From contig MGSF01000045.1 of NCBI GenBank assembly GCA_001798715.1, forward strand, positions 18,576 to 82,575: DNA of 64,000 nt, read 5' to 3'. This DNA comes from Deltaproteobacteria bacterium RIFCSPLOWO2_02_FULL_50_16 (lineage in GTDB: Bacteria; UBA10199; 2-02-FULL-50-16). A program made the position numbers and the translations under genes. The notes under the pieces were generated by a model. That model made no database searches, had not been told where the DNA came from, and worked only from the letters and a program-made list of their open reading frames with translations. Of this stretch, positions 29,890 through 57,101 are shown piece by piece. The stretch's first letter is position 1. Each line of letters starts with the position of its first letter.

Positions 29890-30168
<279 letters not shown>

Positions 30169-32884: not shown

Positions 32885-33025
32885 TGTTGTTTTACCCCCG
32901 CCCTCACACCTTTGGTGTGAGGACCCATCGCCCCTCTGGGGCTTCGGGGTACCAGTCCTCCGGACTGGTACAGGAGGCTTTCAGAATGGATTCCTCCCCG
33001 CCCTAAATGTTACACATTTAGGACA
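32885..33025. repeat. Cluster of GC-rich perfect hairpins (REP-like) between apt and tRNA-Arg
   Basis: CCTCACACCtttGGTGTGAGG, GCCCCtctGGGGC, and GGTACCAGTCCtccGGACTGGTAC (11-bp perfect stem). Contains the 18-mer TCGCCCCTCTGGGGCTTC, which also occurs at 55937-55954. Confidence 0.45.
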
Positions 33026-33085
33026 GGGGGCTTTCGCAGTCGATCAAAAAGGAAGGTTTCCTTTATGGGGACTGCGAAAGCCCCC
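33026..33085 (+). promoter_or_regulatory. Leader hairpin whose 3' arm includes nt 1-6 of tRNA-Arg(CCT)
   Basis: GGGGGCTTTCGCAGTC ... GACTGCGAAAGCCCCC is a perfect 16-bp stem. The loop carries AAGGAAGGTTTCCTTTATGG. Confidence 0.5.
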
Positions 33086-33152
33086 GTAGCTCAATGGATA
33101 GAGCGGCGCACTCCTAACGCGTAGGTTGGGTGTTCAATTCACCCCGGGGGCG
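33080..33152 (+). tRNA. tRNA-Arg (anticodon CCT)
   Basis: Cloverleaf: acceptor GCCCCCG/CGGGGGC, D-arm GCTC AATGGATA GAGC, anticodon loop CTCCTAA, T-arm GGGTG TTCAATT CACCC, discriminator G. There is one A:C mismatch at the base of the anticodon stem. Confidence 0.8.
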
Positions 33153-33237
33153 CAAAATTCGGGAGTGTAGGGCTGGTGACACCAGCCCTGCGCGACCAGA
33201 ATTTTGCTGTACTCATCCCTCCCAGGGATGAGTGCGC
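33153..33237 (+). repeat. Structured tRNA trailer, copy 1 (~85 nt, three hairpins)
   Basis: GCAAAATTC...GAATTTTGC closing stem enclosing GGGCTGGTGacaCCAGCCC, followed by CTCATCCCtcccaGGGATGAG. Near-identical copy at 33597-33681. Confidence 0.6.
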
Positions 33238-33294
33238 CAAAACGTGATTCGCCCCTGCCCTCGGCCCCAATGTGTTACACCTGGGCCGAGGACT

Positions 33295-33353
33295 AGGGGC
33301 TTTCGAAGTAAAATATTAAGGAAGAATCCTTTGTGGGTACTTCGAAAGCCCCT
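33295..33353 (+). promoter_or_regulatory. Leader hairpin whose 3' arm includes nt 1-6 of tRNA-Arg(CCG); paralogous to 33026-33085 with compensatory changes
   Basis: AGGGGCTTTCGAAGTA ... TACTTCGAAAGCCCCT is a perfect 16-bp stem. Loop is TTAAGGAAGAATCCTTTGTGG. Three positions covary with leader 1 and the stem stays perfect. Confidence 0.5.
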
Positions 33354-33419
33354 GTAGCTCAGTGGATAGAGCAGTGGCCTCCGAAGCCATGTGCGGGTGT
33401 TCGATTCACCCCAGGGGCG
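33348..33419 (+). tRNA. tRNA-Arg (anticodon CCG)
   Basis: Acceptor GCCCCTG/CAGGGGC, D-arm GCTC AGTGGATA GAGC, anticodon stem GTGGC/GCCAT with loop CTCCGAA, T-arm GGGTG TTCGATT CACCC, discriminator G. Confidence 0.8.
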
Positions 33420-33420
33420 C

Positions 33421-33464
33421 CAAAATGTTTTGGGAGGGTTGCCCCCCTCCCAAAACATTTTTTG
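33421..33464 (+). terminator. Rho-independent terminator after tRNA-Arg(CCG)
   Basis: CAAAATGTTTTGGGAGGG / CCCTCCCAAAACATTTT is a ~17-bp perfect stem followed by TTTTTGG. Confidence 0.6.
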
Positions 33465-33576
33465 GTCCCTGAGGATGTTTGAGAACATCAGCGTCGAAAG
33501 ACGCTTGTGTTCGACGCGCGTAGCACCTGCTGAGAGCAGGTGCAAAGCCGCACCCGGAGCCAGCGAAGCTGGTGAA

Positions 33577-33596
33577 GGGTGTTCACCCCAGGGGCG
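33577..33596 (+). pseudogene. tRNA-Arg 3' fragment (T-arm remnant plus acceptor 3' strand) preceding trailer copy 2
   Basis: GGGTGTTCA--CCCCAGGGGCG aligns to the 3' end of tRNA-Arg(CCG), GGGTGTTCGATTCACCCCAGGGGCG, with a 3-nt T-loop deletion. No intact 5' half is present upstream, only unrelated hairpins. Confidence 0.5.
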
Positions 33597-33681
33597 CAAA
33601 ATTCGGGAGTGCAGGGCTGGTGTCACCAGCCCTGCGCGACCAGAATTTTGCTGTACTCATCCCTCCCAGGGATGAGTGCGC
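33597..33681 (+). repeat. Structured tRNA trailer, copy 2
   Basis: 85 nt identical to 33153-33237 except for 2 substitutions (T>C at 33180/33610, A>T at 33191/33621). Confidence 0.6.
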
Positions 33682-39542: not shown

Positions 39543-39622
39543 TGTTATAACATTATGTTAGTCGTTCCTGAAAGAGTCCTTATAAGGCAAGGGGAGCCCC
39601 AATATTTTCTTTCGCTTTATGC

Positions 39623-39699
39623 CCTAATCCGCTATCGGCGGATTAGGACAAGCTTGAAAAGTCAATAACTTGTGGGCCGCAAGGAAATTGACTTTTCAA
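39623..39699 (+). promoter_or_regulatory. Nested perfect stem-loops in the 227-nt region upstream of trmFO
   Basis: CCTAATCCGCtatcGGCGGATTAGG (10-bp stem). Then TTGAAAAGTCAAT ... ATTGACTTTTCAA, a 13-bp stem whose loop contains the CTTGtgggccgCAAG hairpin. A 16-bp palindrome TAATGTTATAACATTA also lies at 39540-39555. Confidence 0.4.
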
Positions 39700-39768
39700 A
39701 AGCCGCTCAAGAAAAATTGGGACTCCCCTTGCCTTTCATGCCAAAATGAGACTTTTTCAGGGACAACT

Positions 39769-54502: not shown

Positions 54503-55804
54503 ATGCTCAATTGGATATGGCTGGTTCTTGTCTTGGGATCTGTCATTGTGGCGGCCTTTACTGGAAGAATGGAGGACCTGACCCAGACCTCGATGGAGTC
54601 CGCGAAAGAGGCCGTTCTTTTGTCCATTGGTTTGATTGGTGTCATGGCCTTTTGGTTGGGTTTGATGCGTGTGGCCCAGGACGGGGGATTGTTGCAGGTT
54701 GTTTCTCGCGGGGTTCGACCTGTCATGCGCCGTCTCTTCCCTGAGATTCCCGAAGATCATCCCTCTATGAGCATGATGATCATGAATATTGCCTCCAATA
54801 TGTTGGGTTTGGGCAATGCGGCGACGCCCTTTGGGCTGAAGGCCATGATGGAGCTCAATCGCCTCAACCCCGCCCCGGGTGTGGCCACAAACGCCATGTG
54901 TCTTTTTCTGGCTATTAATACGAGTAATGTGGCCTTGTTCCCCTTGGGAGCCATGGCGATGAGGGCCTCTGCCGGTTCTCTGGATGTGGGGGGTATTATG
55001 GTGCCCACTTTTTTGGCGACTTCTTTGTCGACGGTGGTGGCCATTGTTTCTGTCAAGTTTCTTGAAAGACTCCCTCGTTATAAAGCCCCTTCCTTTTCAG
55101 GGCCTGTTGTTTCGGAAGAGGTCTCTCGCACGGATCTGTCTCAGGAAACCCCCGCTCCTTCTGAGCTCGTTTCTATTCCCCGGTGGGTCAAGATCATGGT
55201 GAGTGGTGTGACCGTGGGGGGGATTTTTTCGGGATTTGTTTATTATGTGATCCATAGTCCCCTGGATTTTTGGGATTTGGCTCGAGACTTTTCCTCTCAT
55301 TGGTTGATTCCCTTACTCATCGTCAGTTTGGTTCTTTATGGTTTTCTCAAAGGGGTCAAGATCTATGAATCCCTCGTTGAAGGGGCCAAGGAGGGATTTT
55401 CGGTAGCGATGCGTATCATTCCCTATTTGGTGGCGATCTTGGTGGCTGTGGGCCTATTTCGGGCCTCTGGGGCCCTGGATTTTTTGGTAACCCTCTTGAC
55501 CCCCTTAACCTCTTTCATAGGGATGCCGGCGGAGACCCTTCCCATGGCCTTATTGAGGCCCCTCTCTGGTTCGGGGGCCTTTGCTGTCATGACGGAGACC
55601 ATGAAGATTTATGGTCCGGATTCTCTCATTGGCTATATAGTTTCGACCATACAGGGGAGTACTGAAACAACTTTTTATATCTTGGCCGTCTATTGTGGTG
55701 CTATTTCGGTCAAAAATGTACGCCATGCCCTGCCAGCATGTCTTATGGCGGATCTTGCCGGGATCCTTGCCGCCGTCTGGCTTTGCCGCCTGTTTTTTCT
55801 TTAA
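54503..55804 (+). CDS. Fused SpmA/SpmB-like nucleoside-recognition (Gate) domain membrane protein
   Basis: 433 aa polytopic protein. The N-terminal half is SpmA-like and the C-terminal half SpmB-like. Confidence 0.65.
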   Translation: MLNWIWLVLVLGSVIVAAFTGRMEDLTQTSMESAKEAVLLSIGLIGVMAFWLGLMRVAQDGGLLQVVSRGVRPVMRRLFPEIPEDHPSMSMMIMNIASNMLGLGNAATPFGLKAMMELNRLNPAPGVATNAMCLFLAINTSNVALFPLGAMAMRASAGSLDVGGIMVPTFLATSLSTVVAIVSVKFLERLPRYKAPSFSGPVVSEEVSRTDLSQETPAPSELVSIPRWVKIMVSGVTVGGIFSGFVYYVIHSPLDFWDLARDFSSHWLIPLLIVSLVLYGFLKGVKIYESLVEGAKEGFSVAMRIIPYLVAILVAVGLFRASGALDFLVTLLTPLTSFIGMPAETLPMALLRPLSGSGAFAVMTETMKIYGPDSLIGYIVSTIQGSTETTFYILAVYCGAISVKNVRHALPACLMADLAGILAAVWLCRLFFL

Positions 55805-55845: not shown

Positions 55846-55990
55846 TTGCACAAACCCTCCTCGGCCGGGTTTGTGCAAGCTATGGCCCTCAAAGGCATTG
55901 AGGCCGTGAGGTGTTTGAGGGCCATAAAGCCGCCCTTCGCCCCTCTGGGGCTTCAGGATCTCAAGCCTCTGGCTTGAGGCTCAAGAAAAG
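55846..55990. repeat. REP-like GC-rich hairpin cluster downstream of the SpmA/B gene
   Basis: TTGCACAAACCC/GGGTTTGTGCAA (12-bp stem). TATGGCCCTCAAA/TTTGAGGGCCATA (13-bp stem) with a competing CCTCAA/TTGAGG pairing. 18-mer TCGCCCCTCTGGGGCTTC. CTCAAGCCtctgGCTTGAG. Confidence 0.45.
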
Positions 55991-56042
55991 AGGCCCAATG
56001 TTCTTTCAAGAGATGTATGGAGAAGGGGGGCCATGAAGGTGT

Positions 56043-56873
56043 CTAGAATGTGTTTGTGAGGGCTGTAAAATGGGCGGCTTCTTTAAAACGGCCCCGTTTT
56101 TGGTAGCCCCGGATCAAAATGGCCGAGCGGCGCTTGATGTCCCCGATGACACACCTTCTTTGAGGTTCGGTGAGGAGGGGGTCCTTGAGGATCTTTAAAA
56201 GGGCCTGGATGCGGTAGGAATCCAGGGAATGTTGTGATGAAAGCTGGTCAGCGTGTCCCCCCCGTTTGATGGTCAGGGGCTTATTGAGGGTCATGATGGG
56301 ATATCTCAAGGCCGCCCGGAGCCAAAGGTCATAGTCTTCACAGGCCGGAAGGGTTTCGTCAAAAAGACCGATATCGTCGAAGACCCATCTATGTATCATG
56401 ACAGCTGATGGGGAGACACAACACAGGGGGAGGCAATCTTCAAAAATCCATCCTGATTGTTTTTGGTGTTTTTTACGGGCATTGACACGGAGGCCACGGC
56501 GGATCCAGATCTCTTCGGTCTGGAGGATCCTGCTTTCTGGATGGGTCAGGATATAGTCCCATTGATTTTTGAGTTTATCGGGGAGCCAAAGATCGTCCGA
56601 GTCCAGAAAGGCGATCCAATCCCCTTTGGCGTGATGCAAGCCCCGGTTTCTTGCGGCACTGACCCCCTGACGATTCTGATGGAGATAGTGGATTTGAGGA
56701 AAATTATTTTGACAAAGCCGTGCCGTGTCGTCCGTCGAGCCGTCGTCGACGACGATCGTTTCCAAGGGTTGGAGGTCTTGCTGACGGACGGAGAGGAGGG
56801 CCTCTTGAAGAAAGGAGGAGCGATTGTGGGTCGGAATGATGACACTAATGGGGGGTGACGATCTCATCGACAA
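56043..56873 (-). CDS. Family 2 glycosyltransferase
   Basis: ISVIIPTHNRSSFLQEALLSV...VVDDGSTDDT is the GT-A fold DxD region. Confidence 0.8.
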   Translation of the reverse strand: MSMRSSPPISVIIPTHNRSSFLQEALLSVRQQDLQPLETIVVDDGSTDDTARLCQNNFPQIHYLHQNRQGVSAARNRGLHHAKGDWIAFLDSDDLWLPDKLKNQWDYILTHPESRILQTEEIWIRRGLRVNARKKHQKQSGWIFEDCLPLCCVSPSAVMIHRWVFDDIGLFDETLPACEDYDLWLRAALRYPIMTLNKPLTIKRGGHADQLSSQHSLDSYRIQALLKILKDPLLTEPQRRCVIGDIKRRSAILIRGYQKRGRFKEAAHFTALTNTF

Positions 56874-57101
56874 GGGAGGCTAAAGCAGTTTATATAGCAT
56901 TTCAACTTTTTATTCGTACGGATAAGTGCGGATAAAAAGTTAGAAATACTTATGGTTGGTCATTATAGACTGTACTCATTGAAAGTTAATAAACCATAAT
57001 CCGTGGCAATAAGACTTTGTGATTTTATCAGGAGGGTTATATTAAGACCATGATTTTGTATAAAAAAACATTATATTTTAATTGGTTATATAGAGTTCCT
57101 A

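Follow-up and report, generated by a model that had tools for sequence, protein, structure and literature searches.

Two tandem tRNA-Arg genes (anticodons CCT and CCG) in a 64,000-nucleotide stretch of Deltaproteobacteria bacterium RIFCSPLOWO2_02_FULL_50_16 (the window; positions are window positions unless a strain contig is named, and the parts of the tRNA units lie on the plus strand) are each immediately preceded by a perfect 16-bp hairpin stem that extends six nucleotides into the tRNA. We favor the reading, at a probability of about 50%, that these leader stems form one layer in a stack of GC-rich DNA palindromes that is young, specific to this species, and built up at the 5′ ends of tRNA genes. 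Judged from strains and relatives, the hairpins look young and fast-changing, not like a conserved regulatory RNA. The locus, known from one uncultured species of groundwater bacterium, is unusual in its acceptor-invading stem, in upstream “orphan” copies of the first tRNA nucleotides at two unrelated tRNAs, and in cassette-like replacement of hairpins. The leader feature relates to two known kinds, extragenic palindromes and structured pre-tRNA leaders.

Leader stems that reach into their tRNAs

The stem of tRNA-Arg(CCT) pairs GGGGGCTTTCGCAGTC (33026-33041) with GACTGCGAAAGCCCCC (33070-33085), and that of tRNA-Arg(CCG) pairs AGGGGCTTTCGAAGTA (33295-33310) with TACTTCGAAAGCCCCT (33338-33353); the sequence itself and a repeat finder gave 16 of 16 Watson–Crick pairs in each case, as claimed in an earlier note made from the letters alone. 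The 3′ arm of each stem consists of 10 leader nucleotides followed by tRNA nucleotides 1 to 6, a point of the same note that matches the tRNA starts given by ARAGORN and Rfam, the two means of tRNA detection used here. The complete hairpins, alleles V1 (33026-33085; 85.3 bits against R1, a covariance model of the leader) and V2 (33295-33353; 82.5 bits), share the loop motifs AAGGAAG, TCCTTT, and TGGG, which upholds the proposal that their loops are homologous and the two leaders paralogs. Folding predicts a 16-bp P1, a 3-bp P2 that includes G.U pairs, and a P3 of AAGGA/UCCUU, which in V1 extends to AAGGAA/UUCCUU; P1, P2, and P3 together form a helix of ∼26 bp (16+3+7) with small internal loops. 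Hairpin energies are −41.9 (CCT) and −33.1 kcal/mol (CCG), with z scores of −8.3 and −7.7, and none of 200 shuffles was equally stable.

Perfect inverted repeats with stems of at least 10 bp number 19 in the 64 kb, eight of them within 32949-33677, and only a 17-bp terminator-like stem (33422-33461) outsizes the two leader stems. Given how few long inverted repeats the window holds and how they cluster, the paired leader stems are not a product of chance; by our own estimate, ∼6 × 10−4 perfect 16-bp inverted repeats would be expected in 64 kb, as compared to the two homologous ones observed.

Compensated differences and proposed copying of the acceptor stem

Three stem pairs (1, 12, and 16) differ between the two window copies, each difference being compensated, as had been reported. 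Pair 1 (G-C versus A-U) follows the C6/G67 versus T6/A67 difference between the tRNAs themselves. This tracking stands as an observation, while its interpretation as RNA covariation gives way to copying as the better explanation, because all four relevant strands of a unit derive from that unit’s own acceptor stem: the leader 5′ arm has, as its outer six nucleotides, the sequence of the tRNA 3′ acceptor strand, and the orphan copy, the leader 5′ arm, the tRNA 5′ strand, and the tRNA 3′ strand are all copies or complements of one acceptor stem. Each of the four carries the C6/G67 or T6/A67 state of its unit, which makes local copying the simplest reading.

Among four distinct leader alleles, 12 of the 16 P1 pairs are invariant, three are doubly changed (two in V1 only, one in V2 only), and one is broken, by an uncompensated A.C in the V3 leader of tRNA-Arg(CCT) (GGAGGC...GCCCCC) carried by the short haplotype of strains L003/L005. 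The covariation amounts to about two or three events within one species, plus one counter-example. The covariation analysis that the earlier note had suggested has only these ∼2–3 events to draw on, and the noncompensated change that it had named as telling against its proposal is present in L003/L005.

Under the favored reading, the leader 5′ arm would be a copy, in reverse complement, of the 10 leader nucleotides together with tRNA nucleotides 1 to 6, such as template switching or an inverted duplication would yield, and the perfect pairing and compensated differences would stem from copying and cassette turnover, not from stepwise RNA compensation. Template switching creates and repairs perfect stems in one step (PMC8794818). 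Like template-switch hairpins (PMC8794818; quasipalindrome mutagenesis), the leaders have an exact reverse-complement arm and several compensatory changes that arrive at once; the arms are complementary at 16 of 16 positions, constrained tRNA bases included, and outgroups lack the arm and have unalignable leaders. However, template switching copies existing sequence and leaves unexplained the V1/V3, T1/T2, and 39621 cassettes described below, as well as the direct orphan copy of tRNA nucleotides 1 to 7. Something preserves the pairing, and arm-to-arm copying would do so as well as selection. Whatever its function, the locus may represent a clean natural case of apparent compensatory covariation arising from DNA-level copying, with acceptor-strand duplication, palindrome creation, and cassette replacement between strains of ≥99.8% identity elsewhere as contributing processes, and a caution for structure calls based on paralogs or strain alleles.

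Cassette-like replacement of hairpins among strains

Strain contigs compared were those from NCBI and ENA assemblies that encode an identical HU protein or an identical adenine phosphoribosyltransferase (APRT), the gene upstream of the tRNAs. The APRT–HU spacer measures 732, 831, 933–936, or 1008–1011 bp, and the flanking DNA differs between strains by 0–12 substitutions per 2–3.5 kb (≤0.6%); for the leader, trailer, and 39621-39649 comparisons that follow, the flanks differ by 0.03–0.2%. Leaders V1 and V3 have 14 differences within 47 nt. Trailer hairpin T1, downstream of tRNA-Arg(CCT) (GCAAAATTC...GAATTTTGC; 33152-33207), is replaced in L002/L007/L047 by an unrelated trailer hairpin of similar size, T2 (GCATTCCCTCGTTGATTTGCCGTGA...TCACGGCAAATCTTACGAGGGAATTGC; L002 3788-3860), with 22 differences within 48 nt and identical flanks; all four possible combinations of V and T alleles were found. 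A non-tRNA palindrome at 39621-39649 reads GCCCTAATCCGCTATCGGCGGATTAGGAC in the window and GTCCCGACCCTTCCCGGCCGGGTCGGGAC in five other strains, with 14 differences within 24 nt at equal length and just 2–6 differences in the remaining 3.7 kb. Both of its alleles are 29-nt hairpins, one perfect and the window’s with one C.A mismatch, and the variant alleles at leader, trailer, and 39621-39649 are each still near-perfect hairpins.

With dense changes in hairpins amid near-identical flanks, the hairpin alleles appear to be cassette-like replacements, not the result of gradual divergence; direct repeats mark the ends of indels between near-identical strains, and whole hairpin interiors are exchanged. 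That all hairpin clusters are hypervariable is not supported, given a cluster at 55.8 kb that is invariant in four other contigs and a further ∼22 kb of strain comparison with only 3–9 differences. Spacer inversion (invertons or template switching) as the origin of the allelic hairpins was rejected, as a comparison by eye gave no match between the reverse complement of one allele and the other allele.

A lineage-specific leader

The upstream APRT has a 100% match in Deltaproteobacteria bacterium RIFCSPLOWO2_02_FULL_50_16, the next match being 78% and the others ≤73%. The gene order SurE-PCMT-LysM/M23-APRT-tRNA-Arg(CCT)-(tRNA-Arg CCG)-HU-DprA-TopA is kept in relatives, of which four syntenic ones, with APRT identities of 78% (L039), 73% (L011), 71% (L013), and 70% (L016), were compared. 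None of these four has a stem that includes tRNA bases. The tRNA begins 5 nt after the APRT stop codon in L013 and 15 nt after it in L016; in L039, the closest relative, it begins 46 nt past the stop, after a 7-bp AT-rich hairpin that ends at −1, and in L011 96 nt past the stop, also after an AT-rich hairpin. Model R1 found matches in this species only and nothing in the four relatives. Conservation in relatives had been set beforehand as the test of the earlier proposal, and with four syntenic loci lacking the stem, the leader hairpin is lineage-specific.

A search for the leader at other tRNAs, also suggested earlier, returned no further copy in the window (motif search with two mismatches, self-BLAST, and the covariance model, filters off), in ∼20 kb of extra flank (model R1; ∼84 kb of the genome in all), or in the relatives; the extra flank holds no additional tRNAs. 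A tRNA-independent leader pattern, run against JGI metagenomes and 185,579 species genomes, turned up nothing beyond chance matches in coding DNA; as the organism itself is absent from both collections and its own locus was not returned, these scans are not informative on genome-wide copy number. Rfam, at gathering and E-value thresholds, gave tRNA only, plus chance miRNA-like hairpin matches, which agrees with the earlier statement that the leaders belong to no recognized tRNA leader class.

Orphan acceptor copies at tRNA gene starts

Upstream of tRNA-Arg(CCT), an orphan copy of the 5′ acceptor strand (ACCCCCG, six of seven positions; 32894-32900) begins 12 nt past the APRT stop codon, close to the tRNA start in L016 and L013, two of the four relatives, and a second, degenerate copy (TCCCCG) lies at 32995-33000. 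Upstream of tRNA-Arg(CCG), GCCCCTG (33251-33257) copies tRNA nucleotides 1 to 7 exactly (7/7). Upstream of tRNA-Pro (30095-30168), TCGGGGCG (29918-29925) matches 30094-30101 at eight of eight positions, including position −1. Each orphan copy runs straight into CCCT, the start of a palindrome of the form GCCCT-stem-loop-stem-AGGAC. This hp0 family has five members in the 64 kb, all on one strand, where none is expected; among them are hp0a (32900-32924; six inner pairs, zero expected in shuffles), hp0b (GCCCTAAATGT-tac-ACATTTAGGAC; 33000-33024), immediately 5′ of the leader hairpin, hp0c (GCCCTCGGCCC...GGGCCGAGGAC; 33257-33293), and the palindrome at 29925-29949 upstream of tRNA-Pro. An exact or one-mismatch copy of tRNA nucleotides 1 to 7 followed by CCCT precedes three of the four window tRNAs versus none of nine control tRNAs.

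At tRNA-Pro, the orphan copy and hairpin module span 29918-30094: 168 nt of GC-rich hairpins begin directly after TCGGGGCG, namely the hp0-family palindrome and then ∼145 nt of further GC-rich hairpins, with no acceptor-masking stem among them. Because tRNA-Pro thus has the orphan copy and the palindrome without such a stem, the orphan copy would be a by-product of DNA construction, not a dedicated switch part. The first tRNA-Pro hairpin, perfect in L005/L006/L008/L009 (GTCCTCGGTGC-ttc-GCACCGAGGAC), carries two C.A mismatches in the window.

Inserts of 93–168 nt lie between direct repeats of 8 bp at Pro (TCGGGGCG), 7 bp at Arg-CCG (GCCCCTG), and 6 bp at Arg-CCT (CCCCCG), as target-site duplications flank transposable elements of the miniature inverted-repeat type (MITEs) and insertion sequences. 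Terminal inverted repeats of the kind such elements carry were not found: the left ends of the modules read CCCTC..., the right ends ...CGAAA (Arg) or ...GCAACA (Pro), and these are not complementary. That two unrelated tRNAs both have a copy of nucleotides 1 to 7 joined to a GCCCT...AGGAC palindrome may point to a so far undescribed process of insertion that targets tRNA gene starts. An insertion or a duplication event at the 5′ end of the tRNA would give rise to the modules, copying nucleotides 1 to 7 (or 8) and shifting the gene downstream; the modules would then be amplified by tandem duplication, homogenized between units, and turned over as cassettes.

Several observations weigh against a stack of DNA palindromes as the full account. 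The loops of V1 and V3 diverge more than their stems, so that pairing is kept, and selection on the hairpin could do the same. The G.U pairs predicted in P2 on the transcribed strand are an RNA-like trait. In addition to the missing terminal inverted repeats, no transposase or integrase adjoins the modules, no donors for the alternative cassettes were found inside the window, and the copy number rests on the ∼84 kb covered, the organism being missing from the two collections scanned. A designed switch, too, would show such a four-strand arrangement.

Predicted effect on tRNA maturation and alternative explanations

In the predicted folds of the 137-nt and 136-nt precursors, the leader stem forms and the acceptor stem does not, the acceptor pair probability being 0. 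The free energy cost of the cloverleaf relative to the minimum free energy (MFE) structure, in energies that omit tertiary tRNA contacts, is +12.1 kcal/mol for V1, +5.8 to +6.7 for V2, +5.4 for V3, and +12.2 for V3′. As nearest-neighbor folding often misses cloverleaves, control precursors were added: the cost is 0–0.5 kcal/mol for orthologous tRNA-Arg precursors of the relatives and ∼2 kcal/mol for tRNA-Val and tRNA-Pro from the same window. Because the control precursors cost far less, the predicted acceptor block would be specific to the precursors of these two leaders. The folding proposed earlier as a check thus has the leader stem winning over the acceptor stem in both tRNA-Arg precursors, and the claim of a stronger competing partner for the tRNA 5′ acceptor strand holds in silico (+5.4 to +12.2 versus 0–2 kcal/mol in controls).

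When the upstream palindrome is part of the fold, the tRNA 3′ acceptor strand pairs, in the MFE structure, with the CCCC(C/T)G segment upstream. In silico there are two structures that exclude each other, one of them allowing the cloverleaf: state B, the MFE structure, combines the leader stem with orphan:tRNA 3′ strand pairing, and state A, in which the orphan pairs with the leader 5′ arm and the cloverleaf forms, lies 6–9 kcal/mol higher. The leader hairpin would fold before the tRNA 3′ strand is transcribed and would hold tRNA nucleotides 1 to 6. Access of RNase P would then need strand exchange, in which the orphan copy pairs with the leader 5′ arm and frees the acceptor at the predicted cost of 6–9 kcal/mol; alternatively, a prior RNase III or RNase E cut could be followed by removal of the leader 5′ arm. 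On these predictions, maturation of two minor tRNA-Arg species is likely handicapped or delayed. A synthetic riboswitch hairpin on supF tRNA blocks RNase P in vitro and, in E. coli, in vivo (PMC7897497), and because that hairpin occupies the same position beside its tRNA, a masked RNase P site and a real effect on tRNA supply are plausible by analogy. Of the earlier suggestion that the stem gates RNase P processing or tRNA folding, the masking of nucleotides 1 to 6 is borne out as a prediction; conserved regulation does not stand, given the relatives without the stem and the A.C allele.

A selected RNA gate is possible but unlikely. It would be a cis-acting switch in which state B blocks RNase P and state A permits it, the partition between them tuning the supply of AGG- and CGG-reading tRNA. 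Four mutually complementary strands stand in the right order in both units, with state B as the MFE structure; the predicted block is strong relative to controls; pairing is retained in every allele except one; and the synthetic leader hairpin provides a precedent for control of RNase P. However, the stem is missing from all four relatives, the A.C allele persists in several strains, the tRNA-Pro orphan copy occurs without an acceptor-masking stem, the leaders have no aptamer-like conserved element and no Rfam match, and hairpin interiors are replaced wholesale. The extended form of this explanation is a doubtful one, namely, that a natural four-strand RNA switch (orphan, anti-acceptor arm, 5′ strand, and 3′ strand) gates RNase P for the two single-codon tRNA-Arg species (AGG, CGG), as the counterpart of the synthetic RNase P riboswitch, and was installed by an undescribed palindromic cassette that targets the first 7–8 bp of tRNA genes. 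If the hairpin does delay or gate RNase P, it would be, to our knowledge, the first natural pre-tRNA leader that competes for the acceptor strand itself, and a simple means to throttle rare-codon tRNAs.

Equally doubtful is a hairpin for processing or stability of an APRT–tRNA co-transcript, one that protects the 3′ end of the APRT mRNA once the tRNA has been excised or serves as an entry site for RNase III or RNase E, its overlap with tRNA nucleotides 1 to 6 being incidental. Co-transcription is likely, given the short distance of 5–15 nt from the APRT stop to the tRNA in relatives, and the interval between APRT and the tRNAs gave no predicted promoter-like or terminator-like site. An RNase III stem comprises about two turns of near-continuous double-stranded RNA, and the ∼26-bp P1+P2+P3 helix is, in silico, of a size that the enzyme accepts. 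However, the second unit comes after a tRNA, not an mRNA, yet has the same leader; relatives manage without such hairpins; and a processing role gives no reason for the stem to reach into the tRNA.

Scars of site-specific integration would make the modules remnants of integrative elements that used tRNA attachment sites, with the direct repeats as attL/attR cores, and we consider this improbable for the modules as a whole. Attachment sites at tRNA and tmRNA genes were reportedly surveyed by Williams in 2002. At tRNA genes that serve islands and prophages, duplicated tRNA segments flank the insert and the gene is restored, and a 177-bp insertion in the T-loop of tRNA-Arg(CCG) (33405-33581) fits this pattern, in that it restores the 3′ end of the tRNA and displaces the old one, an outcome typical of integrases that target tRNA genes. 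In relative L013, a displaced copy of the 3′ two-thirds of tRNA-Arg(CCT), from the anticodon arm onward, lies ∼110 nt after the gene (L013 3608-3767), which appears to be the usual signature of an integration event whose cargo has since been lost. In contrast, the leader modules (93–168 bp) lie at the 5′ end and duplicate the first 7–8 nt, with repeats of just 6–8 bp, whereas classical sites duplicate the tRNA 3′ part and carry an integrase. No integrase was found in or next to the inserts; the sole one, at ∼41.1 kb with a GIDA-family gene on one side and a proteasome-family (HslV-like) gene on the other, is probably housekeeping. Neither the 177-bp insert nor the upstream modules gave a phage or plasmid match, and the inverted repeat is left unexplained. 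An integrase scar would account well for the 177-bp T-loop insert but badly for the 5′ modules. Chance or an assembly artifact has a negligible probability: scaffold L041 has an N gap in this region, which is hard to assemble, but the same stems occur in independent NCBI and ENA assemblies made with different assemblers, and chance would supply ∼6 × 10−4 such repeats as compared to two homologous ones.

Comparison with known systems

The leader would act as an RNase P block of the leader-sequestering type and resembles the palindromes of the repetitive extragenic palindrome (REP) and bacterial interspersed mosaic element (BIME) kind, while it has the full set of hallmarks of neither, because it is not conserved, has no Rfam family, no terminal inverted repeats, and no adjacent transposase or integrase that could be found, and is not multicopy in ∼84 kb. 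As in the synthetic RNase P riboswitch built on supF tRNA (PMC7897497), a hairpin directly 5′ of the tRNA sequesters the cleavage-site region. The synthetic device, however, is engineered, contains a theophylline aptamer, and masks the leader only, while the tRNA-Arg leaders, known here from sequence and folding, have no aptamer and a stem that enters the acceptor by 6 nt.

REP/BIME sequences (REPINs) are likewise GC-rich, perfect or near-perfect intergenic palindromes that are clustered and strain-polymorphic, and the leaders and hp0 members resemble them in forming a small family with conserved GCCCT...AGGAC stem bases. Hallmarks of REPINs are many dispersed near-identical copies, a GTAG-type head, and an associated RAYT transposase. 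Unlike these, the leader palindrome occurs at the tRNA-Arg units only within ∼84 kb, the hp0 family has five copies in 64 kb, and hp0 and leader members vary in their stem interiors with no common master sequence. No GTAG-type head was seen by eye before the leader stems, and no RAYT gene was identified, in an analysis that included no protein-family scan for RAYT. The four strands are also reminiscent of attenuators and T-boxes, in which four segments pair as 1:2+3:4 or as 2:3(+1:4) in mutually exclusive states. In contrast to those, the tRNA-Arg leaders lack a terminator, a leader peptide, a tRNA- or ligand-binding domain, and conservation, and their output would be RNase P access, not transcription.

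Organization of the units and other features of the window

A unit of ∼270 bp (orphan copy, GCCCT...AGGAC palindrome, leader palindrome, tRNA, and trailer hairpins) is present twice in tandem, with remnants of a third. The tRNA-Arg(CCT) gene (33080-33153, end at 33152 or 33153; 63.8 bits) has no encoded CCA. It is preceded by a strain-variable spacer (32925-32999) that is missing in L003/L005 and altered in L001/L007 and that contains a palindrome (GTACCAGTCC-tcc-GGACTGGTAC; 32949-32971) and a remnant of a V3-type leader 5′ arm (AGGAGGCTTTC; 32972-32982). In L001 (3560-3760) and also in L007, a second leader hairpin joined to tRNA nucleotides 1 to 13 and followed by degenerate sequence lies upstream of the working tRNA-Arg(CCT), so that leader and nucleotides 1 to 13 are duplicated around ∼130 nt. 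This extra copy appears to be a decayed third unit, of which AGGAGGCTTTC is the only trace in the window. Trailer hairpins downstream of tRNA-Arg(CCT) occupy 33152-33242 and include ACTCATCCCT-ccc-AGGGATGAGT (33211-33233) in addition to T1.

The tRNA-Arg(CCG) gene (33348-33422, end at 33419 or 33422; 67.6 bits) takes its 3′ end and encoded CCA from the 177-bp insertion, which is bounded by the 16-bp direct repeat TTCACCCCAGGGGCGC (33405-33420 and 33582-33597) and contains the 17-bp terminator-like hairpin. The displaced tRNA 3′ end and a second trailer copy follow at 33582-33681, 97% identical to 33138-33237. The window and L002/L004/L008/L009 carry the insertion, and L001/L003/L005/L006/L007 lack it; the short allele without it has CAA after the discriminator. 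A spurious 137-residue open reading frame that overlaps leader and tRNA returned only itself in a protein database search for paralogous loci. Enrichment of UNCG or GNRA tetraloops on the transcribed strand was considered as a sign of RNA-level selection and rejected, the loops being mostly 3-nt centers of perfect palindromes, with a single GAAA loop.

The variable palindrome at 39621-39649 is one of two inner hairpins in a ∼150-nt composite (39587-39737) flanked by genes for a PQQ-repeat protein and a GIDA-family (TrmFO-like) protein; its outer stem, GGCAAGGGGAGCCCCAATATTTT / AAAATTGGGACTCCCCTTGCC, surrounds both, and possible identities for the composite are a structured RNA and a MITE. The tRNA-Arg spacer (32928-32945) shares the 18-nt segment TCGCCCCTCTGGGGCTTC, letter for letter, with positions 55937-55954 in the invariant GC-rich hairpin cluster (55846-55990), which lies between two convergent genes. 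In strains L062/L064, five substitutions fall within 16 nt (55129-55144) of a gene for a “Gate”-domain membrane protein, where the strains otherwise show a few differences per 10 kb; no reverse-complement donor was found nearby. One strain (ERZ27254842; L062 3333-4630) has two small unannotated open reading frames where the window (∼56040-56900) and two other strains have a family-2 glycosyltransferase on the minus strand, a difference that appears to be a gene-replacement polymorphism.

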